Source: Burkholderiaceae bacterium
GTDB taxonomy: Bacteria; Pseudomonadota; Gammaproteobacteria; Burkholderiales; Burkholderiaceae_C
Reading direction: 5' to 3'
Assembly: GCA_039921765.1 (NCBI GenBank)
Contig: JBDSBD010000152.1
Coordinates: 1-27,472, forward strand
Length of the DNA: 27,472 nt
Below, piece after piece: positions 22-14,276 of the stretch. Made by a program: the position numbers and the translations under genes. A model generated the notes under the pieces. That model had not been told where the DNA came from, made no database searches, and saw nothing but the letters and a program-made list of their open reading frames with translations. How positions within the stretch are numbered: the first letter of the stretch is position 1; every line of letters begins with the position of its first letter.

Positions 22-798
22 TCACTCGGTGTGCAATGTGGTCAATGGGCCCAGGTTGCCGCGAAACGCGCTCGACTTCTTCAGCAGGTTCTTGGCGGTC
101 ACGGCAATGTCGTGCTCGATCGCGCGGCGCGTCGCGGCCGCCTTTCCGTTGCGCAGCGACTCGAGGATGTCGGCGTGGCCCGACGCGTCCCATTGCATGG
201 TCGGGTTGGTCAGCGAGAAGTACATGAAGGGCCCGGCGCGCAGCCACAGCGCCTCGATCAGCCCGGGCAGGATTTCCGACTGCGACGCCGCGTAAAGCGC
301 GAAGTGGAACGCTTGGTTGTACGACAGGCAGCCCAGGATGTCGCGGCGTTCGATGGCCTTGTGCAGCTGGGCGTCGAGCTTTTCCAGTTGGGCAATCAAT
401 TGCGGCGTCACGCGTTCGCAGGCCATCTCGGCCGCCATGCCTTCGAGGGCCGTGCGCACGCGCGTCAACTCGATGAAGCGCGACGGCGTCATGCGCGCCA
501 CCATCACCGATCGGTTGGGCAGCGCTTCGAGCACGCCGGCCGCCGTGAGCTGGCTGATGACCTCGCGCACCGGCATCGGGCTGGTGCCCAGCTGCTGGGC
601 CAGTTGCCGCAATGACAGCGGCTGGCCGGGCACGATCTGCCCGACCATCAGCGAGCGGCGCAATTGCTGCGCGACGCGATCCTGCAGTTCGCCGCGCCGC
701 GGCTTCGGATGTTCGTCGGCCGACCTTATCTCCGATTTGGCAGACCCGGGGCCACGTTGTATTGAGCTGAACTCATTCTGACTGGACGCCAATACCAT
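22..798 (-). CDS. GntR-family transcriptional regulator (N-terminal wHTH + FCD domain)
   Basis: 258 aa ORF. wHTH segment LQDRVAQQLRRSLMVGQIVPGQPLSLRQLAQQLGTSPMPVRE; FCD residues NQAFH, GHADIL, EHDI. AGGAGAG RBS just upstream of the ATG at 798. Confidence 0.93.
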   Translation of the reverse strand: MVLASSQNEFSSIQRGPGSAKSEIRSADEHPKPRRGELQDRVAQQLRRSLMVGQIVPGQPLSLRQLAQQLGTSPMPVREVISQLTAAGVLEALPNRSVMVARMTPSRFIELTRVRTALEGMAAEMACERVTPQLIAQLEKLDAQLHKAIERRDILGCLSYNQAFHFALYAASQSEILPGLIEALWLRAGPFMYFSLTNPTMQWDASGHADILESLRNGKAAATRRAIEHDIAVTAKNLLKKSSAFRGNLGPLTTLHTE

Positions 799-965
799 AA
801 CCGTCTCTCCTGCTGATCCCGATGAAATGTCGCGCTTATTCGTGGTCGGTGGTCAGGGGCGGCCCAGTTTGACGGGTATCTCCAAAATACTCGGAACCGG
901 CGCGAAAAATCGACGAAGCGGCAAGCGCCCCGCAGGCCATGGCATCAGCCAACACATCGTGAGTG

Positions 966-994
966 ATTGTGATCACAGCGAGGTGCGATGTCAA
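966..994 (-). promoter_or_regulatory. sigma70-type promoter for gntR with overlapping palindromic operator TGTGATCACA
   Basis: Minus strand reads TTGACA (994-989), 11 nt, TGTGATCACAAT (977-966). The -35 to -10 (CACAAT) spacing is 17 nt. Same layout as the sites at 1176 and 7162. Confidence 0.75.
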
Positions 995-1175
995 GCCGTG
1001 AGCACCGTCCTGGTCCGTCACGCGACCCCAGCGGCCGTGACACTGCTGCGCCGAGCGGTCGTGCCGCCGGGAATCGCAAAATCTGTTACTACCAAGGGGA
1101 TGGCGCGAGCATTGCGGCAGCGCGAAACCTCTCGCTCCACCGGGTTTCCCCGGCTCTTTCGAATGCCGAAAGCGC

Positions 1176-1213
1176 TTGACAGCCTCTCCGTCTGTGATCA
1201 CACTAAGTGATCA
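1176..1213 (+). promoter_or_regulatory. sigma70-type promoter for the substrate-binding protein gene with tandem operator
   Basis: TTGACA 1176-1181, 11 nt, TGTGATCACACT 1193-1204 (-10 = CACACT, 17-nt spacer), 2 nt, second GTGATCA 1207-1213. Confidence 0.78.
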
Positions 1214-1331
1214 TGCTCGATGAAACTGGAAGCGTCGACAACGCGCGCAGTACGGCGGCGCGCGGTTGGCGGGCGGGCCGGTGCATGCGATGACTGCCCA
1301 TTGAAATCCCTTGTCACTGGAGATTCATATT

Positions 1332-2330
1332 ATGGCTACGGTTCGAAATATCGCTAGATTGGTTGCCTCTGCGGTGGTTGGTGCGGCAGTATTCGGCGCA
1401 ACCACCGGCACTGCATTTTCTCAGGAGCAGGTCAACGTCCGTTTCAGCTGGAAACTGAAAGGCGAGTATGCGCCGATGTATGTCGCGCAGGAAAAAGGTT
1501 ACTACGCACGCGAAGGCCTGACGGTTCGTCTGGGCGAAGGCGCGGGCGCGCCGGCGGCGCTCGGCGCCCTGTTGCAGGGCCAGGAAGATGCGGTACTGCT
1601 GCCGGGCGTGTTCGCGTTGACGGCGATCAGCAAGGGGATGCCGATCAAGCTGATCGCGCTGTACCACCCGAAGACCCCGGTGGCGCTGATCTCGTGGCCG
1701 GACAACGCCGTGCGCACCCCCAAGGATCTGGAAGGCAAGTCGATCGCCACCGCCATCGGCGAGACCGGCACCACCTACCTCGACTCTTTCTGCAAGGCCA
1801 ATGGGGTCGATTGCGGCAAGGTCAAGCGCGTTCAAGTGAACGCGCAGTCGCGTGTGCCGCAGTTCATTCAGCGCAAGGTCGATGTCGTCAGCGTCTACCA
1901 GACCAACGACCTGCCGATCCTCGAAGAGACGCAGGGCACCAAGTTCATCGTGCTCGAGATGGACAAGAACGGCCTGGCCATTCCCGGCATGGCGCTGGTC
2001 AGCAGCGATGCGGTCATCGCGAAAAAGCCGCAGACCCTGAGCAAGCTGCTGAAGGCGGTGGGCGATGGTGTGGTCGAGATGAAGAAGGATTCGTCCGAAG
2101 CGGCCAAGATGATGATGAAGAACTGGTCGGGCCACCCGAGCGCCTCGGCGGTCACCGCGCAGGTCAAGGCGACCGCCGACGCGATACCCGCCACGCCCGG
2201 CCATCCGGTCGGCTGGATCGATGAAAAGGTGGTGGGCGACGCGCTGGCGATGCTCAAGGCGACCGGCGAGATCGACGCGCCCAAGCCCACAGCCACCTAC
2301 TTCACCAACAGCCTGCTCGACGCCAAGTGA
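1332..2330 (+). CDS. ABC transporter substrate-binding protein, NMT1/THI5-like (NitT/TauT family)
   Basis: Signal-peptide-like N-terminus (MATVRNIARLVASAVVGAAVFG..AFSQ) and family-like segment RFSWKLKGEYAPMYVAQEKGYYAREGL. ATG 1332 chosen over TTG 1311 because of the GGAG RBS at 1319-1322. Confidence 0.88.
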   Translation: MATVRNIARLVASAVVGAAVFGATTGTAFSQEQVNVRFSWKLKGEYAPMYVAQEKGYYAREGLTVRLGEGAGAPAALGALLQGQEDAVLLPGVFALTAISKGMPIKLIALYHPKTPVALISWPDNAVRTPKDLEGKSIATAIGETGTTYLDSFCKANGVDCGKVKRVQVNAQSRVPQFIQRKVDVVSVYQTNDLPILEETQGTKFIVLEMDKNGLAIPGMALVSSDAVIAKKPQTLSKLLKAVGDGVVEMKKDSSEAAKMMMKNWSGHPSASAVTAQVKATADAIPATPGHPVGWIDEKVVGDALAMLKATGEIDAPKPTATYFTNSLLDAK

Positions 2331-2371
2331 TCTGACGCTGCAGGTCGGCGGGCTGCTGCCGGCTGCGCCCT

Positions 2372-4717
2372 TCAGGGCGCCGCCGGCTCACGCGCTTCGC
2401 GGATCAGGCGGGAGAGGTTGTTCGGCGACAACGGCAGCGAGACCACCTTGACGCCAAACGATTGCAAGGCATCGGCCACCGCATTGGCGATGGCCCCGCC
2501 GACGCCTTCGATGCCACCCTCGCCGACGCCTTTGGCGCCTAGCGGGTTCAGCGACGAAGGCGCCCGGTTCAGGCTGTAGGCCTCGACATTCGGGAAATCG
2601 GTGCTGGTGGGCAGCAGGTAGTCGGCGAAGCTGCCGCACATCATCTGGCCGGAGTCGTCGTAGACAAACTCCTCGAGCAGGGTGCCGCCCAGCCCCTGCA
2701 CCGTCGCGCCGATCACTTGCCCGTGGACGATCAACGGGTTGATGACGTTGCCGCAGTCCTCGACGGTGACGATGCGGACGACCTCGAGGGTCGACGTTTC
2801 CGCGTCGATCGCGACGTGGGCGATCTGCGTTCCGTACTCGAAGGTGCAGACCGTTTGCGCGAAGTGCCCGTCGGCTTGCAGAAGGCACGCTGCGGCCGTG
2901 TCGCCGCGTCCCGTCGCTTCGCAAAGCTGCTCGACCGAGACGATCGTCTCGCCGGTGTGCCGGCTCGACACGCTGCCGCGCCGGTAGGCCAGATCCCCGA
3001 GCGCCAGTCCGCTGCGTTGCGCTGCCTCGGCCAGCAGCTGCGAGACAAACGCTTCACCGACCCGCTTGACGGCGCTGCCGCCCATCACCATGCCGCGCCC
3101 GTGATAAGTGCCGAAGCCGCGCGCCACACCGGTGGTCGAGCCGTGGAAGACCTGGATCGCGGCGCAGTCCAAGCCGATCTCGTCGGCCAGGATCTGCGCG
3201 AACGAGGTCTCGTGGCCCTGCCCACTGCTCGACGCGCCGGTGAAAAGGTGCACGTCGGTCGGTGAGTGGATCTGCAGCCGGGCGTATTCGGCCGGGCCGG
3301 CGCCGCTGCTGTCGACGAAGCACGCGATGCCCACGCCATGCCACCGGCCGTCGATCTGCTTGCCGCGCAGGCTCGACAGGCCGGCATAGTCGATCTTGTC
3401 CAGCGCATGTTGCAACACGAACGGGTAGTCGCCGCTGTCGTATTCGCCGGACCCCTCGTAGGGCACCAGCGCGCCGATCCGATAGGGCATCTGCTCGGGG
3501 CGGATCAGGTTGCGCAGGCGCACCGCGGCGGCGTCGAGCCCGAGGTCGGCGGCCATCATGTCGATCAGCCGTTCGCGAAAGAAGTTGGCCTCGTAGCGCC
3601 CGGGCCCGCGAAAGGTGCCGGATGGCGTCTTGTGCGTCATCACCGCGTTGACATCGCAGGTGTAGTGCGCGATGTCGTAGGGGCCGGGCAGGAACGAGGC
3701 GGCCTTCGCCGGCACGATACCGCCGGTGGTGCGTGCGTAGGCGCCCATGTCGGCGAAGATTCTTCCGCGCAGCCCGAGGATCGTGCCGTCGCGGCGCGCG
3801 GCGATCTCGAGCTCGCAGTCCATTTCGCGCGAATGGTTCATCGCGATCAGGTTTTCACGCCGGTCCTCGATCCACTTGACGGCGCGACCCATGAGCCTGG
3901 CGACGAGCGGAATCAGCAGATCCTCCGGGTAGAACTCGCCGCGCGCACCGAAGCTGCCACCCACGTCGAGTTCGATCAGGTCGACGGCATCCTCGTCGAG
4001 GCCGAGCATCTGCGCCAGCAGGCGCCGGTTGTAGAACGGCACCTTGGTCGCGCCCCAGACCTGCAGACGCTCGCTCGCAGCGTCCCAGCGCGCCACCAGA
4101 CCGCGCGTCTCGAGCGGCACCGACGAGTGCCGGTGACAGTGGAACGTCTCCTTGCGCGTGTAGTCGGCGTTCGCGAATGCAGCGTCGGCGTCACCGCGGC
4201 GGGCGGTGTAATGGGCCGCCCGGTTGGTCCCCGCGTCCGCATGGACGAGAACCTCGTCGCGCAGCGCCGCGGCGATGCCGACGACGGCGTCGCACGCGTC
4301 GATCTCGGCGCAGACGAGGTCGGCGCCATCCTCGGCGGTGTAGCGGTCGTGCGCCACGACGACCGCGAGCGGCTCGCCGACGTAGCGCACGGTGTCCTTG
4401 GCCAGCGGCCACTGCAGACAGCGCTCGAGCCCCGCGACCGGGCCGACGCGCACCGGAATGGCCAACGCGTGTGTCGCGATGTCGGCATGCGTGAAGACCG
4501 CCAGCACGCCAGGCACGGCGAGTGCTGCGCTCGTGTCGATCGCGGTGATGCGCCCGTGCGCCAGCGGACTGCGCACGATCACCGCGTGGCACAGATCGGG
4601 CAGTTTGAAGTCATCGACGAAACAGCCGGCGCCGCGCAAGAAGCGCTCGTCTTCGTGGCGCTCGCGGGCGCGCCCGACTTCCTGGGCCGCGGGGGGCATG
4701 GCGGGGGCTTGGTTCAT
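2372..4717 (-). CDS. Xanthine dehydrogenase/CoxL-family molybdopterin-binding large subunit of a molybdenum hydroxylase
   Basis: Real start MNQAPAM at 4717 overlaps the small-subunit stop (ATGA). Motifs VGGSFGARGE, GTFRGPGRYE, SSGQGHET, GAKGVGEGG. Lacks the AYXCSFR motif of form I CO dehydrogenase. Confidence 0.92.
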   Translation of the reverse strand: MNQAPAMPPAAQEVGRARERHEDERFLRGAGCFVDDFKLPDLCHAVIVRSPLAHGRITAIDTSAALAVPGVLAVFTHADIATHALAIPVRVGPVAGLERCLQWPLAKDTVRYVGEPLAVVVAHDRYTAEDGADLVCAEIDACDAVVGIAAALRDEVLVHADAGTNRAAHYTARRGDADAAFANADYTRKETFHCHRHSSVPLETRGLVARWDAASERLQVWGATKVPFYNRRLLAQMLGLDEDAVDLIELDVGGSFGARGEFYPEDLLIPLVARLMGRAVKWIEDRRENLIAMNHSREMDCELEIAARRDGTILGLRGRIFADMGAYARTTGGIVPAKAASFLPGPYDIAHYTCDVNAVMTHKTPSGTFRGPGRYEANFFRERLIDMMAADLGLDAAAVRLRNLIRPEQMPYRIGALVPYEGSGEYDSGDYPFVLQHALDKIDYAGLSSLRGKQIDGRWHGVGIACFVDSSGAGPAEYARLQIHSPTDVHLFTGASSSGQGHETSFAQILADEIGLDCAAIQVFHGSTTGVARGFGTYHGRGMVMGGSAVKRVGEAFVSQLLAEAAQRSGLALGDLAYRRGSVSSRHTGETIVSVEQLCEATGRGDTAAACLLQADGHFAQTVCTFEYGTQIAHVAIDAETSTLEVVRIVTVEDCGNVINPLIVHGQVIGATVQGLGGTLLEEFVYDDSGQMMCGSFADYLLPTSTDFPNVEAYSLNRAPSSLNPLGAKGVGEGGIEGVGGAIANAVADALQSFGVKVVSLPLSPNNLSRLIREAREPAAP

Positions 4718-5211
4718 GTCCGCGGCGCCTCGGCGGACTGGGCACCGAGCCGGGCGGCCGCTTCGATCGCGTCGACGATCGGAAGGTAGCCGGTGCAGCG
4801 GCACAGGTTGCCCGAGATCGTGTCCCGAATCTGCGCCCGCGTGGGTTGCGGGTTCTCCTGCAGCAGCGCGTGCGCCGTCACCAGCAGGCCGGGTGTGCAA
4901 AAGCCGCACTGCAGCGCGTGACGGGTCTTGAAGCATTGCTGCAGCACCGACAGCCCGCGCGGCGGTGACAGCCCCTCGACCGTGGTGACCTGCCGGCCGT
5001 TGAGCTGCGCGGCCAGCAGCAGGCAGGCACGCGCCGACACGCCATCCAGCAGCACGGTGCAGGCGCCGCACACGCCGTGTTCGCAGCCCAGATGGGTGCC
5101 GGTGAGGTTCAGCTCGTTGCGCAGGAAGTCGGCCAGCGTCAGGCGGGGTTCGACGCAGGCCTCGACCGGCGCGCCGTTGACGAACAGCGATACGGAGATG
5201 GGTTCAGCCAT
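4714..5211 (-). CDS. (2Fe-2S)-binding small subunit (CoxS/XdhA-like)
   Basis: GCEHGVCGACTVLLDG, LQCGFCTPG and NLCRCTGY cysteine motifs for two [2Fe-2S] clusters. Confidence 0.95.
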   Translation of the reverse strand: MAEPISVSLFVNGAPVEACVEPRLTLADFLRNELNLTGTHLGCEHGVCGACTVLLDGVSARACLLLAAQLNGRQVTTVEGLSPPRGLSVLQQCFKTRHALQCGFCTPGLLVTAHALLQENPQPTRAQIRDTISGNLCRCTGYLPIVDAIEAAARLGAQSAEAPRT

Positions 5212-6088
5212 GGTGAAGCGGGTTCCTCGGGTTCAGCGCCTGCGTCAGCGCGCGTGCGGTCAGCGCTTGCACCAGCTCGCTGCGGTACTGGGCGCTCGCG
5301 TGGTGGTCGGAGCGGCATTCGACGACATGGCGCGCATTGAGTGCGGCGTTGCGCACATGGCGCTCGGTGGGCGTGCGCCCCGTCAGCTCGGCCGCGGCGG
5401 CGCGCAGCAGCAGCGGGCTGTCATTGACACCGAAGGCGACGATGCGCGCCTGCGTGCAGACGCCGCTAGGCTCGACGTCGAGCAGGCAGGCGATGCCGAC
5501 GATCGCGAAGTCGCCGTGGCGGCGCGCGATTTCCTGGAAGCCCCAGCGGCGCGTCGCCGGCCATGCCGGGAAGACCACCTGGACCAGCATTTCGGTGGGC
5601 GCCAGCGCCGTCGTGAACAGGCTGAGCGAAAACTCCGCGGCCGGCAGTCGACGGATCCCGCGGCTGCTTTGCAAGACCATCTCGGCGTCACAGGCCAGGC
5701 ACAGCGCCGGCCACTCGGCCGACGGATCGGCATAGCAAAGACTGCCGCCGATGGTGCCGCGATTGCGGATCGCCACGTGCGCGACCGATGCCATCGCGTG
5801 GTGCACCAGCGGCAGACGCTGTGCGATCAACGCGCTGGTTTCGAAGAAGCGGTGGCGCGTCATGGCACCGGCCACGAGACGCCCATCGGGTGCCATCTGC
5901 ACGCCGGCCAGCGCATCGAGCGGGTTCAGATCGATGAGTGCGGCGGGTGCGGCCAGGCGGAAGTTCAGCGCCGGCATCAGGCTTTGCCCGCCGGCCAGCA
6001 GCTTCGCGTTGTCGCCGTGCTCGCCGAGCAGCGCGAGCGCCTCGTCGACGCTGGCGGGCGAGAAGTAATCGAAAACGGGCGGCTTCAT
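5204..6088 (-). CDS. FAD-binding medium subunit (CoxM-like)
   Basis: MKPPVFDYFSP, LLAGGQSLMP, AHVAIRNRGTIGGSL and RRHGDFA motifs. Gene order M-S-L. Confidence 0.94.
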   Translation of the reverse strand: MKPPVFDYFSPASVDEALALLGEHGDNAKLLAGGQSLMPALNFRLAAPAALIDLNPLDALAGVQMAPDGRLVAGAMTRHRFFETSALIAQRLPLVHHAMASVAHVAIRNRGTIGGSLCYADPSAEWPALCLACDAEMVLQSSRGIRRLPAAEFSLSLFTTALAPTEMLVQVVFPAWPATRRWGFQEIARRHGDFAIVGIACLLDVEPSGVCTQARIVAFGVNDSPLLLRAAAAELTGRTPTERHVRNAALNARHVVECRSDHHASAQYRSELVQALTARALTQALNPRNPLHHG

Positions 6089-6155
6089 AGGCTCCTCGTG
6101 CGGGCGCTGCGCGCGTGTCCCGGCGTGTCCAGGCCTCCGGCGGGCCCATAATCTG

Positions 6156-6191
6156 TGCGAGAATTGTTTCTCGTATTGCGAGAACTGTCAA
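6156..6191 (-). promoter_or_regulatory. Promoter for the coxMSL-like operon with CGAGAA/TTCTCG inverted repeats (candidate IclR operator)
   Basis: Minus-strand TTGACA (6191-6186), 17 nt, AACAAT (6168-6163). Repeats TGCGAGAA 6156-6163, TTCTCGTA 6168-6175 and TGCGAGAA 6177-6184 give the palindrome TTCTCG-N5-CGAGAA across the spacer. Confidence 0.6.
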
Positions 6192-6218
6192 CGCCTCCCG
6201 GGCTTGAGAATCCCTGTC

Positions 6219-7046
6219 ATGGCATCGAAGAACACATCGAAGGCAGCGGCAGCCCGCCCCGCGACCCGGCCGTCCGGCGTCGCTGCGGCGCGCCCCGCCT
6301 CGGGCGCGTAGAGCGCGCGCAGGGTGCTCAGCGTGCTGCTGTACTTCGACGCGAACCGCCCGTTCGCCACCATCGACGAGCTGGCCCCGGCGGTGGGCGC
6401 GCCGCTCAGCACGACCTACCGTTACGCGGCGTTGCTCAAGTCCATGGGGTTCCTCGGCGACGACGGCCATGGTCGCTATTTCATCGCACCGACCCTGTTG
6501 CGGCTGTCCGATGCGGCGCGTGCGGCGATCGGCTACGCCGAGCTGGCCCGTGCCGCCGTGGACGAACTCGCCGCCCAGACCGGGGAAACCGTGCTGCTGA
6601 TCCAGCCTGTGGGTCACAACGGCGTGTGCATCGCCAAGGCCGAGTCGGCGCATTCGATGCGGCTCGCCTATGAGCTCGGTGCGGCGTTTCCGCTGCATCG
6701 CGGCGCGGCTCCGAAGGCCCTGCTCGCCCACTTGCCGGCCAACGAACGCGAGCGCTACCTCGACCATGTCGCACGCAGCGAAGCGGCGCCAGGCGACAGC
6801 TTGACTGCGTTGCGCGCCGAACTCGAACGCATCCGCGCCGACGGCGTGGCCTACAGCCGGGCCGAGATCACGTCGGGCGTGTGGGCCGTTGCGGTGCCGG
6901 TGTACCAGCGCGACAAGGCGGTGCTCGCGCTGTCGGTCGCGGGGCCGGCCTTCCGCCTGAAGAAGCCGCTGCGGCCGGCGATCGAACAGAAGGTCCGCGC
7001 GGCGGCGCAGCGGCTGTCGACGCTGCTCACCGGTCTGGTCAGCTGA
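6219..7046 (+). pseudogene. IclR-family transcriptional regulator with an in-frame TAG at 6309-6311 (or an intact shorter gene from GTG 6324)
   Basis: ATG 6219 reads MASKNTSKAAAARPATRPSGVAAARPASGA*SARRVLSVLLYF in the same frame as the 6324-7046 ORF. HTH (IDELAPAVGAPLSTTYRY) and effector domain (PLHRGAAPKALLA, GVWAVAVPV) are intact. Confidence 0.6.
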
Positions 7047-7161
7047 GCGCGGCGAAGCGGCCCGGGCGCCTGCGCGAGGATCCGATCCTTGGCGCGGCGG
7101 GCGGCGCGGATGCAGGCGCTGGGGACTCGGGTATTCCCGCGGCGCTCGAGCCCGAATCGGC

Positions 7162-7199
7162 TTGACAATCCAGCCCATTGTGATCACACTGTGTGATCA
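7162..7199 (+). promoter_or_regulatory. sigma70-type promoter for the permease-to-hydrolase operon with tandem operator
   Basis: TTGACA 7162-7167, 11 nt, TGTGATCACACT 7179-7190, 2 nt, GTGATCA 7193-7199. Spacing identical to the 1176-1213 site. Confidence 0.8.
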
Positions 7200-7270
7200 A
7201 TAGAAGCTCAATGGGCCCGCCCGAACCGGCCCGCTTCCCGGTCGATCCCGGCCTCACCAACGGAGGTGAA

Positions 7271-7348
7271 ATGACCCCGCACTGTGACCCATGCAGGCGA
7301 TGCACGCAAGGTGGCTGCGGCGGCCGTCGGCGCGGAGCTGCCGGATGA
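7271..7348 (+). CDS. Possible 25-aa Cys-rich leader peptide/uORF (MTPHCDPCRRCTQGGCGGRRRGAAG)
   Basis: GGAGGTGA SD-like sequence at 7262-7269 directly before ATG 7271; lies in the about 200-nt leader of the permease. Not in the supplied ORF track (too short). Confidence 0.25.
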   Translation: MTPHCDPCRRCTQGGCGGRRRGAAG

Positions 7349-7404
7349 GCGGGGCGCTCGGTCGCGTCGTTGTCCCGGCGGCAACAACCCAAGGAGGTCC
7401 GCCG

Positions 7405-8196
7405 ATGGCGACCAGACAAGCGAAACGCAAGCCTCGAGTCCTTCGCTCCGTGCTGGAGAGCGGTGCGCCGGTCGTGCTGGCGGCGATCCTGCTGCTCGCC
7501 TGGCAGGTCGCGGTGCCGCTGTTCGGCATCTCCGAGTTCGTGCTGCCGACGCCGTGGGCCATCGTTGCGCGCATCTGGAACGACTTCGCGCTGCTGATGC
7601 AGCACGCCTACGTCACCGGACTGGAAGTGGTGTTCGGCTTCGGCATCGCGGTCCTCGTCGGCGTGCCGACCGGTCTGACGATCTTCTATTCGCGCATCTT
7701 CGAGAAGGCGGTCTACCCGCTGCTGGTTGCACTGCAAACCATCCCGAAGGTGGTGCTGGCGCCGCTGCTGGTGCTCTACCTCGGCTACGACTGGGCGCCG
7801 AAGATCTTTCTTGCGTTGCTGATCTCGTTCTTTCCGATCGTCATCTCGACCGTCGTCGGCCTGCAGTCGCTCGAGAAGCCGATGGTCAACCTGCTGCGTT
7901 CGATGGGGGCCACCGAGATGCAGACGTTCTTCAAGCTGCGCCTGCCGCATGCGCTGCCGAGCATCTTCGGCGGCTTCAAGGTCGCGATCGGACTGGCCGT
8001 CATCGGCGCGGTGATCGGCGAGTACGTTGCCGCGGAGCGTGGCCTCGGCTACCTGCAATTGCAGGCCAGCTCGCAGTTCGACACGACGCTCAGTTTCGCC
8101 GCCGTCGTCGTCATCTCGGCGCTGGGTGTGCTGCTCTTCTCCGCCGTCAGCGCCGCCGAGAGCAAGCTGGTGTTCAAGCACGAGGAGTCCAAATGA
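7405..8196 (+). CDS. ABC transporter permease (NitT/TauT family)
   Basis: AAGGAGGT RBS at 7391-7398 before ATG 7405. Multiple hydrophobic segments, IPKVVLAP, and the EAA-like loop LLRSMGATEMQTFFKLRLPHALP. Confidence 0.92.
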   Translation: MATRQAKRKPRVLRSVLESGAPVVLAAILLLAWQVAVPLFGISEFVLPTPWAIVARIWNDFALLMQHAYVTGLEVVFGFGIAVLVGVPTGLTIFYSRIFEKAVYPLLVALQTIPKVVLAPLLVLYLGYDWAPKIFLALLISFFPIVISTVVGLQSLEKPMVNLLRSMGATEMQTFFKLRLPHALPSIFGGFKVAIGLAVIGAVIGEYVAAERGLGYLQLQASSQFDTTLSFAAVVVISALGVLLFSAVSAAESKLVFKHEESK

Positions 8197-9035
8197 GCGC
8201 GACGATGGAGGCGCTGGCCCGCGCGCCCGCCGCCCGGCATGCCGACACCGCGGCCCGGGGCGTCGCCGTTCACATCGAAGGCGTCACCAAGATCTATGAG
8301 ACGCGCCAGGGCGACGAGATCCTCGCGCTCGACCGCACCGACCTCGTCATCGAACCGTCGGAGTTTGTTGCCGTGGTCGGGCCCAGCGGGTGCGGCAAGA
8401 GCACGCTGCTGAGCCTGATCGCAGGGTTGATCCCGGTGACGTCGGGGCGCATCTTGCTTGATGCCGCCGAGGTGACGCGTCCGCACCCGAAGACCGGCGT
8501 GGTGTTCCAGTCCGACCTGCTGCTGCCATGGCGCACGGTCACCGACAACATTCTGCTGCCCATCGAGGTCAAGCGGCGCCGCAATGCCGAGTACCTGCCG
8601 CGCGTGGAACAGCTGCTCGAACAGGTGGGACTGCAGGGTTTCGGCAGCAAGTACCCGACCGAGCTGTCGGGCGGCATGCGCCAGCGCGTGGCGATCTGTC
8701 GCGCCCTCGTGCAGCAGCCCGGCCTGCTGCTGATGGACGAGCCGTTCGGCGCGCTCGACGCGCTGACGCGCGAACAGATGATCATGGACCTGCAGGCCAT
8801 GTGGCTGTCGGAGGGCAACACGGTGCTGTTCATCACGCACGGCATCGAAGAGGCGATCTTCCTGGCCGACCGCGTCATCGTGATGTCGCCGCGCCCGGGC
8901 CGCGTCGACCTGTCACTGAAGATCGACATCGAGCGGCCGCGCCGCTGGAAGGATCACACCGATCCGCGCTTCCTCGGCTATGTGGCGCAGGTGCGCGAGA
9001 TCTTCGAGGCCAAGGGCGTCCTCACCGAACGCTGA
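8193..9035 (+). CDS. ABC transporter ATP-binding protein (NitT/TauT family)
   Basis: Walker A GPSGCGKS, signature LSGGMRQR, Walker B LLMDEPFGALD, H-loop FITH. ATGA overlap with the permease stop. Confidence 0.95.
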   Translation: MSATMEALARAPAARHADTAARGVAVHIEGVTKIYETRQGDEILALDRTDLVIEPSEFVAVVGPSGCGKSTLLSLIAGLIPVTSGRILLDAAEVTRPHPKTGVVFQSDLLLPWRTVTDNILLPIEVKRRRNAEYLPRVEQLLEQVGLQGFGSKYPTELSGGMRQRVAICRALVQQPGLLLMDEPFGALDALTREQMIMDLQAMWLSEGNTVLFITHGIEEAIFLADRVIVMSPRPGRVDLSLKIDIERPRRWKDHTDPRFLGYVAQVREIFEAKGVLTER

Positions 9036-9058
9036 CCGGTTCGACGGAGCAGAACAAC

Positions 9059-10156
9059 ATGCACATTGCCATCATCGGAGCCGGCGCGGGCGGTGCCGCC
9101 GCCGTCGCCGAACTCACGCTGGCCGGCCATCTGGTGACGCTGTGGAACCGCTCGGCGCAGACACTCGCGCCGTTCCAGGCGCTCGGCGGCGTGGCCTATG
9201 ACGGCGTGTTCGGTGAAGGCGTCGCGCGGCCGCGCTTGATCACCGCGGATCTCGCGCAGGCGATCACCGGCGCCGACGCAATCCTGGTGTGCCTGCCGAC
9301 GTTCTCGCATGCGGCGGTGGCACGCGCGCTGGCCGAGATCGGCGCGACGACGCTGCCGGTCGTGCTCAACCCCGGGCACACCGGCGGGGCGCTCGAATTC
9401 CGCCAGGCCTTTCGCGACGTGCGCGCCGACGTGCCGCCGGTGGCCGAGTTCTCGACGCTGACCTACGTGGCACGCAAGAACCGCCCCGACTGCGTCAGCA
9501 TCACCGGCGCGGCCAAGAAGATCCGCATCGCCGCACTGCCCGGCGGCGAGGCCGCGGCGCAGGCCGGGGCCGAGCTGTACCGCGGCGCGACGCTGATGTC
9601 CGACGTGCTGGCGTGCGACCTGTCCAACGTCAACATGGTGCTGCACCCGCCGGGCGCGGTGCTCGGTGCCGCCTGGGTCGAAGCGACCGGCGGTGAATTC
9701 ACGTTCTACGTCGAGGCAATGACGCCCGGCGTGGCGCGCGTGATGCGAACGCTCGACGACGAGCGTCGCGCGGTGGCGCGCGCCTTCGGCCACGATCTGC
9801 CGTCGCTGATCGAGGAGATGCAGGCGCTGGGCACCGTCGAGGCGTCGGTGCGCGACCTGACCGATCTGGTTGGCGCGATCTCTTCGGGCAAGGCCAACCG
9901 GCGCATCAAGGGACCCGATTCGCTGCAGCACCGCTATTACCTCGAAGATTTCGGCCACGGGCTGCTGCCGTTCCTGGCGCTGGCCGCGGCGGCGCAGGTC
10001 GCGGTGCCGGTGGCCGATTCGCTGTTCAAGCTCGGTGAATCGCTGACCGGCAACGACTACAGCGCGCGCGGCCGCACGGCGGCGCGCATGGGCATCGCCG
10101 GCCTCGACCGGCAAGGCGTGATGAATTGCGTCAGGGGGACTGCCAGTGAGTGTTGA
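9059..10156 (+). CDS. NAD(P)-dependent opine (octopine/nopaline) dehydrogenase-family protein
   Basis: Start MHIAIIGAGAGG (Rossmann GxGxxG) followed by WNRS. C-terminal family motifs NMVLHPPG, FYVEAM, RYYLEDFGHGL. Confidence 0.85.
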   Translation: MHIAIIGAGAGGAAAVAELTLAGHLVTLWNRSAQTLAPFQALGGVAYDGVFGEGVARPRLITADLAQAITGADAILVCLPTFSHAAVARALAEIGATTLPVVLNPGHTGGALEFRQAFRDVRADVPPVAEFSTLTYVARKNRPDCVSITGAAKKIRIAALPGGEAAAQAGAELYRGATLMSDVLACDLSNVNMVLHPPGAVLGAAWVEATGGEFTFYVEAMTPGVARVMRTLDDERRAVARAFGHDLPSLIEEMQALGTVEASVRDLTDLVGAISSGKANRRIKGPDSLQHRYYLEDFGHGLLPFLALAAAAQVAVPVADSLFKLGESLTGNDYSARGRTAARMGIAGLDRQGVMNCVRGTASEC

Positions 10157-11057
10157 TCCATCGAAGGTCGACTGGAGCCAGTGCGTCATCGCGGTGGTGG
10201 GCGGAGACAAGCGCGAACAGGAGATCGCCCGCCTCGCCGCCGCCACCGGCGCCCGCGTGCGCGCCCACGGCTTTCCGTGGCCCGACGCCGGGATTGCGGG
10301 CGTCACGCACGCGAGCGATGCGGCAGCGGCGTTGAAGGGCGCGCGGATCGCGCTGTTCCCGATCCCCGGCATCGCCGCCAGCGGCGCGCTGTTCGCGCCC
10401 GCCGCGCCGACGCCCATCATTCCCGACGTCGCGATGCTTCGCGGCATGCAGTCGCCGGCCCACATCATCCTCGGCTGGGGCGACGCGAATCTGAAGGCGC
10501 ACGCGCAGACGCTGGGCATCGATCTGCACGAGTACGAGTGGGACCAGGACCTGATGCTGCTGCGCGGGCCGGCCATCGTCGAGGGCCTGCTGAAGATCGT
10601 CATCGAGAACACCGCGATCACCATCCACAAGGCGCGCGTGTGCGTGGTCGGCCAGGGCACCATCGGCTTCCTGCTGACGCGCTACCTCGTCGCGCTCGGG
10701 GCGCAGGTGCATGTGGCGGCGCGCAACCCGGTGCAGCGCGCTGCGGCCTATGCGGCCTGCGCGACGGTGCATGCGCTGGACGAGTTGCCGGCGCTGGCCG
10801 GCGACCTCGACATGCTGTTCTCGTCCGTGCCGCAGCGCGTGGTCGGACGCAATGTGCTCGAGCGCCTGCGTCCGGACGCCTTGATCATCGACCTGGCGGC
10901 GCCGCCGGGTGGCGTCGACTTCGAGGCGGCGAAGGAGCTTGGGTTGAAGGCGCTGTGGACGCGTGGCCTCGGCAGCCGTGCGCCGGTCACGGTGGGTGCC
11001 AGCCAATGGTCGGGCATCCGCCCGCGCATCGAGAAAATTCTTGGAGGTCAAAGATGA
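10146..11057 (+). CDS. Dipicolinate synthase subunit A (SpoVFA/DpaA)-like NAD(P)-binding oxidoreductase
   Basis: Colinear similarity to B. subtilis SpoVFA as I recall it: IAVVGGDKREQEI, TIHKARVCVVGQG, ALGAQVHVAAR, IIDLAAPPGGVDFEAAKELGLKAL. GTG start with AGGGGA RBS. Confidence 0.85.
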   Translation: MSVDPSKVDWSQCVIAVVGGDKREQEIARLAAATGARVRAHGFPWPDAGIAGVTHASDAAAALKGARIALFPIPGIAASGALFAPAAPTPIIPDVAMLRGMQSPAHIILGWGDANLKAHAQTLGIDLHEYEWDQDLMLLRGPAIVEGLLKIVIENTAITIHKARVCVVGQGTIGFLLTRYLVALGAQVHVAARNPVQRAAAYAACATVHALDELPALAGDLDMLFSSVPQRVVGRNVLERLRPDALIIDLAAPPGGVDFEAAKELGLKALWTRGLGSRAPVTVGASQWSGIRPRIEKILGGQR

Positions 11058-12397
11058 AACGCGATCTGGTGATTCGAAACGCTCGCATGGTCGACCACGA
11101 AGGGGAATTCTTCGGCGGCATCGCGGTGCACGAAGGCCGCATCGTGATGACCGGCAACAACGACTCGTTGCCCCAGGGCCACCGCGAGATCGATGCGCAA
11201 GGGCGCGTGGTGATGCCGGGCGTGGTCGACCCGCACTGCCACCTTGGCGTGAACTACCCGTACAACGAGGACATGCGCACCGAGACGGCCGCGGCGGCCA
11301 GCGGCGGCGTGACCACCGTGCTGCTGTACATCCGCAACAAGGCCGGCTCCTATATTCCGTTCTACAAGGATCGGCGTGCGGTGGGTGAAGAGAACTCGAT
11401 GATCGATTTCGGGTTCCACTTCGGCATCCAGCGTGAAGACCACATCCACGAGATTCCGCAGATCGTCGAGCAGACCGGCGTGCGTTCGTTCAAGTGCTAC
11501 TTCGGCTACGAGACCGACAACCCGATCGGCATCGTGCCGGCGACCGACGGCTGGGTCTACGCGGCGATGCGCCACCTCGTCAAGATCCCGGGCGGCGTGC
11601 TGAGCGTGCACTGCGAAAACACCGGCATCGCGACCTGGCTCAAGGACGAGCTGATGGCCACCGGTCGCCAGGATCTGGGCGCCTACACCGAATCGCGCCC
11701 GGCCTTCTGCGAGGAAGAAACCATCAAGCGCATGTTGTTCCTCGCCGAGCGCACGAAGTGCCCGCTGCACATGGTGCACACCTCCGTCGGCCAGGGGCCG
11801 GTCCTGGCCGCCGAAGCGCGCGGGCGCGGCATCGACGTGACCGTCGAGACCTGCCCGCACTACCTGACGCGCACCTGCTACGACGCAGACCTGGACATGA
11901 CCGCCAAGATCTCACCGCCGCTGCGCGACCGCAGCGAGCTGGAAGGCCTGTGGCGAGGCATGCTCGACGGCACCGTCTACAGCCTCGGGACCGACCATGT
12001 TCCGTTCTTTCCCAAGAAGGGTGAAGACCTGTGGAAGGAAGTGCCGGGCGTCGTGTGCTTCCCGTGGGAACTGCCGCTGATGCTGCACTTCGGCGTGCAC
12101 GAGCGCGGCCTGTCGCTGTCGCGGCTGGTGCAGCTCAATTCGTATCACCCGGCGCGCCGCTTCGGCCTGTGGCCGCACAAGGGCTCGCTGCAGGCGGGCG
12201 CCGATGCCGACCTGGTGATGGTCGACATGGACGAAGAGCGCACCGTCCACCACACCGGGAACGGCCTGTGCATCTACGAAGGCTGGAAGCTCAAGGGCTG
12301 GCCTGTGATGACGGTGTCGCGCGGCGACATCGTCTACGAGAACGGACAGGTCGTCGAACGCTTCGGCGGCGGCGCGTGCGTCACCCGCCCGAAATGA
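11054..12397 (+). CDS. Cyclic amidohydrolase (dihydropyrimidinase/hydantoinase/allantoinase-like binuclear metalloenzyme)
   Basis: DPHCH (HxH), FKCYF (carboxylatable Lys), VHCEN, MVHTS, SPPLR, GTDH, GADADLV. ATGA overlap with the upstream gene. Confidence 0.9.
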   Translation: MKRDLVIRNARMVDHEGEFFGGIAVHEGRIVMTGNNDSLPQGHREIDAQGRVVMPGVVDPHCHLGVNYPYNEDMRTETAAAASGGVTTVLLYIRNKAGSYIPFYKDRRAVGEENSMIDFGFHFGIQREDHIHEIPQIVEQTGVRSFKCYFGYETDNPIGIVPATDGWVYAAMRHLVKIPGGVLSVHCENTGIATWLKDELMATGRQDLGAYTESRPAFCEEETIKRMLFLAERTKCPLHMVHTSVGQGPVLAAEARGRGIDVTVETCPHYLTRTCYDADLDMTAKISPPLRDRSELEGLWRGMLDGTVYSLGTDHVPFFPKKGEDLWKEVPGVVCFPWELPLMLHFGVHERGLSLSRLVQLNSYHPARRFGLWPHKGSLQAGADADLVMVDMDEERTVHHTGNGLCIYEGWKLKGWPVMTVSRGDIVYENGQVVERFGGGACVTRPK

Positions 12398-13071
12398 ACC
12401 TGGGCTTTCCTGCCGAACAGCGAGCCTCGTATCGCTCGACGGGATGGTGTGTGTCCGCGCAGACCATCCCCGAGTCGGTGGCGGAACCGGCAAGAACGCT
12501 GGCGCGTGAGCTGGTGCGGCGCCGCCCGCGCCAGGACATGCTGTCGGGCGTGCACAACCCGTTCGGCCACCACGCCTGCCCGAACGCAGCCTGGCGCTTT
12601 CTCGACCTCGCTGAAAGCCCCGCACTGCTCGATCCGGTGGAAAGCGTGATGGGTCCGGACCTGGTGCTGTGGGACAGCGAGCTGTACCTCGATCTGTCGG
12701 CGTGGCCGCGCGATGAAGCGCAGCAATGGCCGGTCGATCCGCTTGCCGGCACGGTGGTGTCCATCGATTTCGAGCGCCGGCGCACCGTGCTCATCGACAT
12801 CACCCGGCTGGCCGAGGTGTTCGACGCGATCGCGTTTCTGCCCGGGCCGTGCTACACGGTGCGCTACATGCCGGCGAGCTCGCGCTACAACCGCGACCCG
12901 CGGTTTGGCCCCAACCGGCTCGCCACGCAGCTTCGTCCGCTCGTGAATCACGCCATCCGACCGCTCTGGCTGGTGCGCGGCGAAGATCGCGCCGGCAACG
13001 ATTTCGTGAGCGGCTTCGCGCCGCCCGCCGCGCGCTGGGCCGATGCGGTGCGCCTTCCCCCCGAGCCATAG
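12394..13071 (+). CDS. Degenerate phytanoyl-CoA dioxygenase (PhyH)-fold protein lacking the iron-binding triad
   Basis: FLDLAESPALLDPVESVMGPDLVLWDSELY and YTVRYMPASSRYNRD...RPLWLVRGEDRAGNDF resemble PhyH-family segments. The expected WHQD reads WPRD and no distal His is evident. ATGA overlap with the amidohydrolase stop. Confidence 0.6.
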   Translation: MNLGFPAEQRASYRSTGWCVSAQTIPESVAEPARTLARELVRRRPRQDMLSGVHNPFGHHACPNAAWRFLDLAESPALLDPVESVMGPDLVLWDSELYLDLSAWPRDEAQQWPVDPLAGTVVSIDFERRRTVLIDITRLAEVFDAIAFLPGPCYTVRYMPASSRYNRDPRFGPNRLATQLRPLVNHAIRPLWLVRGEDRAGNDFVSGFAPPAARWADAVRLPPEP

Positions 13072-13086
13072 AAGAGGAGAACCATC

Positions 13087-13287
13087 ATGCCCGTCGTCAC
13101 CGTGCAAATCTGGACCGGCCGCACCACCGAGCAAAAACGCAATCTGGTGGCTGCCATCACCGACGCGATGGTCGTGCACGCCGCGTGCAAACCGGAGCAC
13201 CTGCACGTCATCATCCAGGACGTGCCCAAGGACAGCTGGGGCCGCAACGGCCGCCTCGGCATCGACAACGAACCGGAGGCCAAGTGA
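13087..13287 (+). CDS. 4-oxalocrotonate tautomerase-family protein
   Basis: 66 aa, Met-Pro start (catalytic Pro1), GRTTEQKRNLVAAITDAM, GAGGAG RBS. Confidence 0.92.
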   Translation: MPVVTVQIWTGRTTEQKRNLVAAITDAMVVHAACKPEHLHVIIQDVPKDSWGRNGRLGIDNEPEAK

Positions 13288-14276
13288 TGGCACTCGACGC
13301 ACTCGACCTGAACAAGAGCGCGCTGCTCGTCATCGACCTGCAGAACGCCTTCATCCACGACAAGGGAACGCTGGGGGTGTCCGGGGTCGACACCCAGCGC
13401 CTGTCGTCCATCGTCTCGCCGCTGGCCACGCTGATCAAGCGCTGCCAGGAGGCCGGCATGCCGGTCATCTGGACGATGCAGGAGCACTACGCGGTCGACG
13501 CGCTGCGCAAGCGCAAGAAGCTGGCCGGGCACACCGCGCGGCGCAAGCAGGTGTCGGCGCTGGCGGGCACCTGGGACGAGCAGATCGTCGACGAGCTCAA
13601 GGAGCTGGCCGCGTTCGACCCGTCGCTGGTGATCCGCAAGCACCGCTTCGGCGCGTTCTACGAGACCCGCCTGGAGCAGGTGCTGCGCATGTTCGGCACG
13701 CAGCATCTGTTCGTCGTCGGCGCCACCACCAACGCCTGCGTCGAGACCTCGATCCGCGAAGCCTATCTGCGCGACTACGACGTCGTGGCCGTCAAGGACT
13801 GCATCTCGGGCGTCAACGACGAGTGGGAGCAGACTGCGCAGCAGGTGTGGCAACAGTACTTCTGCGAGCTGCACGGCTCGGCCGACGTGCTCGGCTGGAT
13901 CGACAGGCAACAGGTGCCGCGAACGCTCGGCTACGGCCACATGCTGTTGATGGTCGAGGACGTGGCGCGTTCGACCCGCTTCTACGTCGACCAGCTGGGC
14001 TTCACGATCCGCCCGGCCAAGCCCTTGGCCGACGGCCGACCCTTCACGGCCTTCCACCAGGGTGTGGCGATCGTCGGCGGGCGCGCGCCAGCGCATCGAC
14101 AGGTGGATCACATCGCCTTCGAGGTCAACAACGTGCGCGCGTTGCGTGACAAGCTGAGAAGCTCGGCCGTGCCGTTCGAGCAGGACTTGCACGACGGGCC
14201 CTATGGCTTGACGATCTATGTGACCGATCCCGATGGGGTCCGGATCGAGCTCTACGAGGTGGGTGCCACAGCTTGA
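13287..14276 (+). CDS. Isochorismatase/cysteine hydrolase (RutB-like) fused to a C-terminal VOC/glyoxalase domain
   Basis: Asp-Lys-Cys triad in VIDLQN, RKHRFGAF, GATTNACVE. From about 13930 a VOC domain: GHMLLMVEDVARSTRFYVDQLGF, DHIAFEV, TDPDGVRIELYE. Start overlaps the tautomerase stop (TGATG). Confidence 0.9.
   Translation: MALDALDLNKSALLVIDLQNAFIHDKGTLGVSGVDTQRLSSIVSPLATLIKRCQEAGMPVIWTMQEHYAVDALRKRKKLAGHTARRKQVSALAGTWDEQIVDELKELAAFDPSLVIRKHRFGAFYETRLEQVLRMFGTQHLFVVGATTNACVETSIREAYLRDYDVVAVKDCISGVNDEWEQTAQQVWQQYFCELHGSADVLGWIDRQQVPRTLGYGHMLLMVEDVARSTRFYVDQLGFTIRPAKPLADGRPFTAFHQGVAIVGGRAPAHRQVDHIAFEVNNVRALRDKLRSSAVPFEQDLHDGPYGLTIYVTDPDGVRIELYEVGATA

Follow-up and report, generated by a model that had tools for sequence, protein, structure and literature searches.

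The question raised by contig JBDSBD010000152.1 (assembly GCA_039921765.1) is what compound is consumed by the products of its leftmost gene cluster, and by what route. This 27,472-nucleotide (nt) stretch from a Burkholderiaceae bacterium, analysed here over its whole length and referred to as the window, originates from a soil metagenome and carries the cluster at positions 22 to 14276. We believe, with a probability of roughly 60%, that the cluster is one copy, cut short by the contig end, of a conserved catabolic regulon governed by a GntR/FadR-type repressor, and that its substrate is a nitrogen-containing carboxylate, for which an N-heterocycle with amino or oxo substituents or a cyclic imino acid is the most likely choice. 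An earlier note, made from the sequence alone, had likewise seen a conserved and repressor-controlled catabolic cluster for a nitrogen compound whose identity cannot be read from sequence, and the comparisons described below agree with that view. The same note held that the cluster is complete and proposed a linear order for its enzymatic steps, and on both points we arrive at a different picture.

Gene content and conservation of the cluster

The window has a GC content of 62–73% and many spurious open reading frames (ORFs), from which the real genes were told apart by codon-position GC (GC3) and stop-to-stop frames. The genes of the cluster are these:

22–798, minus strand: gntR, a GntR/FadR-type repressor (Pfam GntR, 5e-16, for the helix-turn-helix (HTH); FCD, 3.5e-21)
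1332–2330, plus strand: periplasmic binding protein of the NMT1/THI5 family, from a NitT/TauT-type ATP-binding cassette (ABC) system (Pfam NMT1, 4e-36)
2372–4719, minus strand: molybdenum (Mo) hydroxylase large subunit, 781 amino acids (aa) (Pfam Ald_Xan_dh_C, MoCoBD_1/2)
4714–5211, minus strand: Mo hydroxylase [2Fe-2S] small subunit (Pfam Fer2_2, Fer2)
5204–6088, minus strand: Mo hydroxylase FAD-binding medium subunit (Pfam FAD_binding_5, CO_deh_flav_C)
6219–7046 (or 6324–7046), plus strand: iclR-family regulator gene (Pfam IclR_C, HTH_IclR)
7291–8196, plus strand: ABC permease, SsuC/TauC-like (BPD_transp_1)
8193–9035, plus strand: ABC ATPase (Pfam)
9059–10156, plus strand: NAD(P) enzyme of the opine dehydrogenase family (Pfam Octopine_DH, 1.8e-35)
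10146–11057, plus strand: DpaA/SpoVFA-like NAD(P)-binding dehydrogenase, 303 aa (Pfam DpaA_N)
11054–12397, plus strand: cyclic amidohydrolase of the hydantoinase/allantoinase/dihydropyrimidinase group (best solved relative 1gkr; all NCBIfam scores below cut-off)
12394–13071, plus strand: PhyH-fold protein, 225 aa (predicted structure; no family match)
13087–13287, plus strand: 4-oxalocrotonate tautomerase (4-OT) family protein, 66 aa, with Pro1 (NCBIfam 4-OT, 6e-17)
13287–14276, plus strand: isochorismatase–VOC fusion (Pfam Isochorismatase, 4e-38; Glyoxalase, 1.6e-15)

The genes named in the earlier note are real: all show coding-type GC3, and the families assigned to them stand. A nine-gene operon on the plus strand spans 7291–14276, from the permease through the isochorismatase–VOC fusion, and the three subunits of the Mo hydroxylase, an enzyme of the xanthine dehydrogenase (XDH) family, form a minus-strand operon. 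Most junctions overlap by 1–11 nt, the exceptions being gaps of 23 nt and 15 nt, in keeping with the stop/start overlaps that had been described. Since none of the cluster proteins reaches an NCBIfam equivalog cut-off, the current curated models give no precise name to any of them.

A scan of one genome per species for relatives of the DpaA-like protein yielded 87 sequences, of which 49, all outside Bacillota, share 56–87% identity with it. With further loci taken from metagenomes, genomes and plasmids, 55 loci (cited below by number, L001 and so on) were compared. Across about 55 loci the DpaA-like orthologues are 56–91% identical and form a proteobacterial set of their own. The DpaA-like gene is present in all 55 loci, the VOC domain in 45 and the 4-OT gene in 43, with absences falling mostly at contig ends, and the opine dehydrogenase is encoded in 25 of the 55. 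About 30 loci that retain the DpaA-like, 4-OT and VOC genes lack both the hydantoinase-like enzyme and the opine dehydrogenase. The DpaA-like protein, the 4-OT and the VOC domain, shared by about 50 loci, are thus the invariant core, with the Mo hydroxylase, the hydantoinase-like enzyme and the opine dehydrogenase as accessory members.

The larger block is nonetheless widely kept together. Genes for the opine dehydrogenase, DpaA-like protein, hydantoinase-like enzyme, PhyH-fold protein, 4-OT and isochorismatase–VOC fusion are collinear in betaproteobacteria (the window, L001, L002, L027, L036 and L094–98) and in two alphaproteobacterial plasmids, pShin-03 of Shinella sp. HZN7 (shn_RS28810–28885) and pAA01 of Aminobacter aminovorans KCTC 2477 (AA2016_RS28065–28155). 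A further 16 gammaproteobacterial loci hold the block together except for the PhyH-fold gene, which is relocated elsewhere. Thus the genes are conserved together, as the earlier note had expected of a true pathway. The isochorismatase–VOC fusion occurs in 13 loci, and in an alphaproteobacterial metagenome contig (L084, 10997–11596) the 4-OT and VOC domains are themselves joined in a protein of 199 aa, a second fusion that ties the VOC domain to a neighbouring step. Alphaproteobacterial loci add a split thiamine pyrophosphate (TPP) decarboxylase and betaproteobacterial loci add alpha/beta hydrolases. In Aminobacter aminovorans pAA01 (L093, 6590–10058) the otherwise conserved cluster is interrupted midway by genes for a D-amino-acid dehydrogenase and malate synthase G, a hint that the pathway may end in glyoxylate or a small amino acid.

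The cluster is rare: a sample of 393 high-quality Pseudomonadota genomes contained no copy, and of 40 relatives of the host only 1 did. It is nevertheless spread across alpha-, beta- and gammaproteobacteria, its betaproteobacterial relatives including Alcaligenaceae, and single loci are binned to metagenome-assembled genomes of Terriglobales and Spirochaetia. Its habitats are soil, freshwater, sludge and sponge- or coral-associated metagenomes, and the full cluster is plasmid-borne in Shinella sp. HZN7, Aminobacter aminovorans KCTC 2477, Aminobacter sp. MSH1 and Phyllobacterium zundukense. The binding protein, whose probable start is ATG 1332 with a signal peptide following, has only weak matches among solved structures (4nmy, 3qsl, THI5 and ThiY 3ix1), and its orthologues in L001, L002, L027, Shinella and Aminobacter are 51–87% identical to it.

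The predicted GntR regulon and the contig end

How these genes might be controlled is indicated by an exact 10-mer, TGTGATCACA, that occurs three times in the 27.5 kb (at 968, 1193 and 7179), each time between genes; the chance expectation, with up to one mismatch allowed, is 0.55. The corresponding promoters are these:

966–994, minus strand: gntR promoter, TTGACA-17-CACAAT, with the -10 element overlapped by TGTGATCACA at 968–977
1176–1213, plus strand: binding-protein promoter-operator, TTGACA at 1176–1181, TGTGATCACA at 1193–1202 and AGTGATCA at 1206–1213
7162–7199, plus strand: operon promoter-operator, TTGACA at 7162–7167, TGTGATCACA at 7179–7188 and TGTGATCA at 7192–7199

The second and third sites share one layout, namely TTGACA, 11 nt, TGTGATCACA, 3 nt and a second half-palindrome (A/T)GTGATCA. 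The arrangement at the binding-protein gene recurs in L001 and L002, and that at the operon is conserved in L001, L002 and L097. More broadly, TGTGATCACA lies beside gntR or upstream of operons led by the DpaA-like, opine dehydrogenase, binding-protein or MR_MLE gene in L001, L002, L005–L009, L016, L019, L023, L027, L036 and L081, and is placed in the same way in several gammaproteobacterial loci, Shinella pShin-03 and Aminobacter pAA01. GntR orthologues of 42–85% identity adjoin DpaA-type operons in alpha-, beta- and gammaproteobacterial loci. The marks by which a GntR/FadR regulon would be recognised in sequence are thus all found here: a winged HTH with an FCD domain, repeated palindromes that overlap promoters, including that of the regulator's own gene, and conservation of these sites beside orthologous regulators. 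The predicted GntR regulon, comprising gntR, the binding-protein gene and the nine-gene operon, accordingly has good comparative support.

The spacer between gntR and the binding-protein gene (799–1331) is unusually long, at about 530 nt, and contains two operator-bearing promoters about 200 nt apart as well as a terminator-like hairpin on the minus strand (913–933). An ORF of 127 aa in the same spacer (827–1210) has no family match, and its GC3 is not of the coding type.

The contig ends 21 nt past the gntR stop codon, and related loci continue beyond this point. The closest relative, L097, has 87.7% nucleotide identity from window position 19 onwards and the same gene order, including iclR; beyond gntR it carries ridA, cobW and a 479-aa Amidohydro_1 gene. 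In the genome of L001 (G041) the genes beyond gntR are MR_MLE, M24, Amidohydro_1 and cobW, with a GTGATCAC site upstream, and in L027 they are M24, Amidohydro_1 and a cytosine-deaminase-like gene. The Shinella and Aminobacter clusters possess MR_MLE, M24, Amidohydro_1, cobW and the cytosine-deaminase-like gene, and RidA as well. Because the relatives continue where the contig stops, the cluster in the window is incomplete, and the completeness claimed in the earlier note is not borne out. The full cluster would comprise some 16–20 genes, of which the window holds most and not all.

Some of these partners resemble enzymes of known type. The Amidohydro_1 protein groups with 8-oxoguanine and TRZ/ATZ-type heteroaromatic-amine deaminases, and the second deaminase resembles cytosine deaminase. 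Similarity to prolidase, creatinase and ectoine hydrolase was seen for the M24 protein, and to muconate cycloisomerase and dipeptide epimerases for the MR_MLE protein. The CobW/COG0523 GTPase is a constant member of the full cluster. In gammaproteobacterial loci cobW adjoins the PhyH-fold gene, which suggests that it may deliver metal to one of the metalloenzymes (regions noted for this observation: L039, 3733–4707 and 2947–3720; L091, 13439–14917; L097, 1714–2757).

The molybdenum hydroxylase and its regulator

Does the Mo hydroxylase belong to the same pathway as the GntR-controlled genes? Its large subunit is nearest, among solved structures, to 6-hydroxypseudooxynicotine dehydrogenase Kdh (7dqx, 1e-138), followed by CoxL (8uem) and quinoline 2-oxidoreductase Qor (1t3q). 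It retains a C-terminal GAKGVGEGG with the conserved Glu, which we take to be catalytic, and reads GTFRGPGR, with no Cys, at the position of the active-site loop of CO dehydrogenase. Models for the aerobic CO dehydrogenase score below their NCBIfam cut-offs (601 versus 950 and 459 versus 991). Identity as a CO dehydrogenase was rejected on these scores together with the Cys-less loop.

One could suppose that two independent units lie side by side and that the IclR-linked Mo hydroxylase, which would act on a different compound, is functionally unconnected with the GntR regulon. The Mo-hydroxylase operon is indeed served by a promoter of its own (6191–6163, minus strand; TTGACA-17-AACAAT), which lacks TGTGATCACA and bears a different repeat, GCGAGAA, and to which a similar sequence is found in L002. 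In addition, iclR stands between the Mo operon and the nine-gene operon. The single promoter-operator motif that the earlier note saw throughout the cluster therefore holds for gntR, the binding-protein gene and the nine-gene operon and fails at the Mo hydroxylase, to which the predicted GntR regulon does not extend in the window. Also in favour of separate units, most versions of the cluster have no Mo enzyme, and iclR travels with a second Mo-hydroxylase operon in other Burkholderiales. However, L001 and L002 have no iclR between the Mo operon and the operon of ABC and enzyme genes, which diverge there from one operator-bearing intergenic region, and L006–L009, L014, L016 and L081 have an orthologous large subunit (60–65% identity) as the immediate neighbour of gntR and the DpaA-like gene, in another arrangement. 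Because the association recurs in two independent arrangements, we argue that the Mo hydroxylase is functionally linked to the cluster, and we regard the existence of two unrelated units as unlikely.

The enzyme is restricted to betaproteobacterial loci, and both of its arrangements adjoin gntR and the DpaA-like gene: in the first, as in the window, it sits beside the ABC operon, and in the second, found in Burkholderiales that lack the hydantoinase block, its large subunit directly adjoins gntR and the DpaA-like gene. It is missing from the alpha- and gammaproteobacterial versions of the same cluster and from two betaproteobacterial ones (L027 and L036). From this pattern, the Mo hydroxylase appears to be an accessory, lineage-specific addition in betaproteobacteria.

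The iclR gene itself has an in-frame TAG at codon 31 (6309–6311). An orthologue of 89% identity in L097 (9459–10286) reads GAA at this codon and is intact at 275 aa, and a restart at GTG 6324 would give a possible IclR of 240 aa that retains most of the HTH. The TAG may be either a nonsense mutation or an assembly error.

A second Mo-hydroxylase operon was observed beside a minimal DpaA-like, 4-OT and VOC set in Burkholderiales (L081, 13768–20337; also L004, L005, L007, L012 and L029). It includes CoxG, an Amidohydro_2 decarboxylase-like gene, alpha/beta hydrolases and iclR, and recalls picolinate-type clusters.

Known pathways and a proposed catabolic route

Several characterised systems share parts with the cluster, and it is important to ask whether any of them accounts for the whole. 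The nic genes of Pseudomonas putida and the pic genes of Alcaligenes faecalis likewise combine a three-subunit XDH-family hydroxylase, here near Kdh and Qor, with an isochorismatase-family amidase of the NicF/PicF fold in a repressor-controlled cluster with its own transporter, and follow the logic of hydroxylation, ring opening and deamidation. They differ in that the window has VOC, 4-OT, DpaA-like, hydantoinase-like and opine dehydrogenase genes instead, and in that most versions of the cluster do without the Mo enzyme. The NicC/PicB FAD monooxygenase, the NicX/PicD 2,5-dihydroxypyridine dioxygenase, maleate isomerase and the PicC/Amidohydro_2 decarboxylase are absent from every coding-type ORF of the window by Pfam and NCBIfam.

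The Rut system of Escherichia coli (rutA–G) offers another partial likeness. The hydrolase domain of the isochorismatase–VOC fusion is closest to RutB (8bkd), then to triuret and biuret hydrolases, and has the catalytic D17, K118 and C151. Shared with Rut are a scheme of oxygen-dependent opening, ureido or amide hydrolysis and a final reductase, as well as the handling of a reactive enamine, for which the full cluster has RidA, comparable to RutC, and the window has the 4-OT. In contrast, the Rut pathway has no VOC domain, whereas here one is fused to the hydrolase. The RutA luciferase-like flavin monooxygenase and RutF are absent from the window, and the hydrolase domain scores 87.5 bits with the RutB model against an NCBIfam cut-off of 377.95.

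The amidohydrolase invites comparison with the reductive pyrimidine and allantoin pathways. Its nearest solved relative is an L-hydantoinase (1gkr, 1.5e-61), and it carries H61 and H63 (HxH), K147 (the carboxylated Lys), H186, H242 and D314, which we take to be the metal ligands. It scores 279.9 against the cut-off of 393.25 for D-hydantoinase/dihydropyrimidinase, and neither a DHO_dh-type subunit of dihydropyrimidine dehydrogenase nor a beta-ureidopropionase is present, the gltD-like gene further along the window going with korAB. The allantoinase models fall short as well (284 versus 631 and 272.5 versus 357.85), and the downstream enzymes of allantoin breakdown are absent from the window. 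Hydantoin utilisation, and creatinine degradation through N-methylhydantoin, are a further partial likeness. Shared with them are a hydantoinase-type amidohydrolase, an isochorismatase-type hydrolase resembling N-carbamoylsarcosine amidase and a terminal secondary-amine enzyme, to which the full cluster adds a cytosine/creatinine-deaminase-like enzyme and a creatinase-like M24 protein. However, the cluster lacks the ATP-dependent N-methylhydantoinase, an M20 or nitrilase-type carbamoylase, hydantoin racemase and sarcosine oxidase, and these pathways themselves lack the core of DpaA-like, 4-OT and VOC proteins.

The DpaA-like protein and the opine dehydrogenase could also be read as parts of a biosynthetic cluster that makes an opine-type metallophore or a dipicolinate-like product. 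CntM, a member of the opine dehydrogenase family, completes metallophores of the staphylopine type, and DpaA is a component of dipicolinate synthase; the CobW metallochaperone gene of the full cluster would suit such a role. The opine dehydrogenase of the window contains GxGxxG and is nearest, among solved relatives, to the Arthrobacter N-(1-D-carboxyethyl)-L-norvaline dehydrogenase CENDH (1bg6, 2.5e-56). The 303-aa DpaA-like protein resembles clostridial and bacillar DpaA over its full length at about 30–35% identity (solved relatives 2rir and 3d4o). Its scores are below cut-off for DpsA (205.1 versus 261) and spore_dpaA (182.7 versus 319.65), and no gene for the DpaB flavoprotein was found in the window by Pfam and NCBIfam scans or in any annotated related locus. 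An identity as the dipicolinate synthase SpoVFAB was rejected on these grounds, and the setting differs from that of SpoVFA/SpoVFB in Bacillota in that the host is non-sporulating and the context catabolic. A nicotianamine-synthase-like gene and an exporter are missing too, whereas the importer, the FadR-type repressor, at least five C–N hydrolases, the deaminases, the Mo hydroxylase and the 4-OT make up a degradative set. We therefore consider a biosynthetic cluster highly improbable.

Degradation of dipicolinate by a dip cluster of the Alcaligenes faecalis type seems just as remote. In its favour are the GntR/FadR repressor, a DpaA-like protein for which dipicolinate-like ligands are conceivable and betaproteobacterial relatives that include Alcaligenaceae (PMC11472048). 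The described dip cluster has an operator GWATAC/GTATAC and a monooxygenase and is independent of Mo cofactor in A. faecalis (PMC11472048). The DipR operator GTATAC is absent from the whole 27.5-kb window, where the operator is TGTGATCACA, and Pfam and NCBIfam scans of the window found no DipD-type monooxygenase, a Mo hydroxylase being present instead; the two systems are set apart here by operator and described components, not by Dip protein sequences. The lumazine/pterin cluster I of Cupriavidus sp. LA-1 encodes a lumazine dehydrogenase, an amidase-signature isomerase, a prenylated-FMN-dependent (UbiD) decarboxylase and a pterin deaminase (PMC12391406). Only the general types of Mo hydroxylase and heteroaromatic deaminase are shared with it, and the amidase-signature and UbiD families are absent from the window and from the Shinella and Aminobacter clusters.

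By these comparisons of gene content, none of the characterised pathways tested (nic/pic, rut, reductive pyrimidine, allantoin, dip and lumazine) matches, and the earlier note was right to find no counterpart for the set among the pathways that it considered. A search of the literature for these enzyme combinations likewise returned no matching pathway description within its coverage, which left out most subscription journals.

What, then, might the enzymes do? The earlier note proposed a linear hydrolytic route for one pyridine, pyrazine or pyrimidine, in which the Mo hydroxylase would form a lactam, the DpaA-like protein would reduce the ring, the hydantoinase-like enzyme would open it, the RutB-like hydrolase would remove an amide or ureido group and the opine dehydrogenase would cleave an N-(carboxyalkyl)amine. 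All five enzyme types are present with catalytic residues intact, the Mo large subunit is nearest to pyridine- and quinoline-ring hydroxylases, and the sequence of hydroxylation, ring saturation and opening by an amidohydrolase has precedents in anaerobic nicotinate fermentation and in the hxn route of Aspergillus. The hxn cluster has been described (PMC5746545). However, the clusters of Shinella, Aminobacter, L027, L036 and 16 gammaproteobacterial loci are complete but for the Mo hydroxylase, and the hydantoinase-like enzyme and opine dehydrogenase are lacking in the roughly 30 core-only loci noted above. Because these three are missing from many loci that keep the core, the linear scheme is not supported: it makes accessory genes obligatory, gives no role to the VOC and 4-OT proteins, which are the most conserved partners, and leaves out of account the full cluster's deaminases, M24 and MLE-type genes, which lie off the contig and could not have been included. 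We judge such a route to be distinctly improbable.

In the catabolic regulon that we favour, the core would instead act as a module resembling meta-cleavage. The VOC domain has invariant H7, H64, E110 and Y100 across 35 sequences, and in sequence it best matches the homoprotocatechuate 2,3-dioxygenase catalytic domain. These invariant residues and this match, the constant 4-OT partner, the fusions to 4-OT or amide hydrolase and the hydrolases or TPP decarboxylase of related loci are the reasons for this reading. The 4-OT retains Pro1 in all orthologues shown except L024; in this Terriglobales homologue (4042–4227) the protein starts MAVV rather than MPVV and has no catalytic Pro1. In known pathways 4-OT follows extradiol ring fission, and the TPP decarboxylase of alphaproteobacterial loci and the alpha/beta hydrolases of betaproteobacterial loci are what would be expected downstream of ring fission and a tautomerase step. 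The xyl and dmp meta-cleavage pathways similarly place a VOC metalloenzyme with a 2-His-1-Glu site beside a Pro1 4-OT and a dehydrogenase, with alpha/beta hydrolases or a decarboxylase in related loci here. They differ in that the VOC protein of the cluster is a single domain of about 115–130 residues rather than a two-domain catechol dioxygenase, the dehydrogenase is DpaA-like rather than an aldehyde dehydrogenase, the decarboxylase is a split TPP enzyme (alphaproteobacterial loci) and the context is rich in nitrogen chemistry.

On this basis the compound would enter through the NitT/TauT-type ABC system and release the repressor from its operators. In the upper steps exocyclic amino groups would be removed and a cyclic amide or ureide opened, the opening being done here by the hydantoinase-like enzyme; the helpers expected in these steps, encoded off the contig, would be two heteroaromatic-amine deaminases, an M24 creatinase/prolidase-like hydrolase, an MLE-type enolase, RidA and CobW. 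The opine-dehydrogenase-like enzyme would break or make a secondary-amine C–N bond. Within the core, the VOC domain, through its 2-His-1-Glu site and probably with O2, would open a hydroxylated ring; the fused RutB-like hydrolase would then take nitrogen off the product as an amide or carbamoyl group, the 4-OT would ketonise an enol or enamine, and the DpaA-like dehydrogenase would oxidise or reduce the resulting 2-oxo or 2-hydroxy acid or cyclic imine. The Kdh-like Mo hydroxylase would place an oxo group next to a ring nitrogen, either to widen the substrate range or to ready the ring for cleavage. The hydantoinase-like enzyme, the cysteine hydrolase, the 4-OT, the Mo hydroxylase and the VOC domain all retain their catalytic residues.

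A number of observations weigh against this reading, beyond the missing GntR operator at the Mo operon and the stop codon within the neighbouring iclR. The order of the steps is drawn from fusions and analogy only. The match of the VOC domain to homoprotocatechuate dioxygenase is weak (E 4.5e-8), one candidate catalytic His is not retained in gammaproteobacterial loci, and the top ranks of a fold search are FosA, glyoxalase I and antibiotic-binding VOC proteins of the same small size. Tested as an extradiol (type I) dioxygenase, the domain shows the 2-His-1-carboxylate set and the Tyr, has one domain only and has the fold neighbours just named; the fold search left dioxygenase and glyoxalase- or FosA-type functions unseparated, and the assignment as a ring-cleaving dioxygenase is accordingly weak. 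The PhyH-fold protein has no evident active site. It matches no Pfam or NCBIfam family, and its AlphaFold2 model (pLDDT 85.5) is a PhyH-type jelly roll with PhyH (2a1x), ThoJ and CytC3 as top Foldseek hits and PhyH clusters as Atlas neighbours; a single His is invariant among 15 orthologues, which leaves it without a 2-His-1-carboxylate triad. The window's own assembly contains only distant paralogues of MR_MLE, M24, Amidohydro_1 and CobW, or nothing, although it is only 76% complete and the failure to find these off-contig genes therefore does not show their absence. Finally, the window sequence is present only in DNA metagenomes from soil, sludge and similar sources, and no RNA runs were found to hold it; one soil run covers 90% of the window.

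The genes on the other side of the cluster seem to be unrelated to it. The minus strand of 14473–22859 encodes korB, korA, a gltD-like Fe-S flavoprotein, an AI-2E transporter, a flavocytochrome-c sulfide dehydrogenase and a cytochrome c, none of which is conserved with the cluster in related loci. For this reason korAB and the gltD-like gene (18250–20130) were dropped as candidates for the 2-oxoacid end of the pathway.

As to the substrate, we infer that the enzyme set would suit a pyrimidine, purine, pteridine or creatinine-like ring with amino or oxo substituents better than it would a simple pyridine. A bolder proposal, which we put forward only tentatively and think more doubtful than the catabolic regulon as such, is that the pathway serves a compound abundant in nature, either an N-heterocycle with amino or oxo substituents or a cyclic guanidine or ureide; oxidised purines and pteridines, aminopyrimidines and creatinine-like compounds would be examples. 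It would do so with a new three-enzyme core, in which a DpaA-like dehydrogenase that stands alone and a 4-OT would work with a ring-cleaving VOC dioxygenase of miniature, single-domain form that is fused to a RutB-like deamidase, and the chemistry would be new to these families.

If the catabolic reading is true, a route of some 16–20 genes exists that is absent from curated models and from the literature found. It would also provide the first functions for proteobacterial homologues of DpaA, for a CENDH-like opine dehydrogenase outside opine biology and for the isochorismatase–VOC fusion. Given that cultured strains of Shinella and Aminobacter bear the cluster on plasmids, and that the predicted operator is known, the hunt for the substrate could be taken to the bench.

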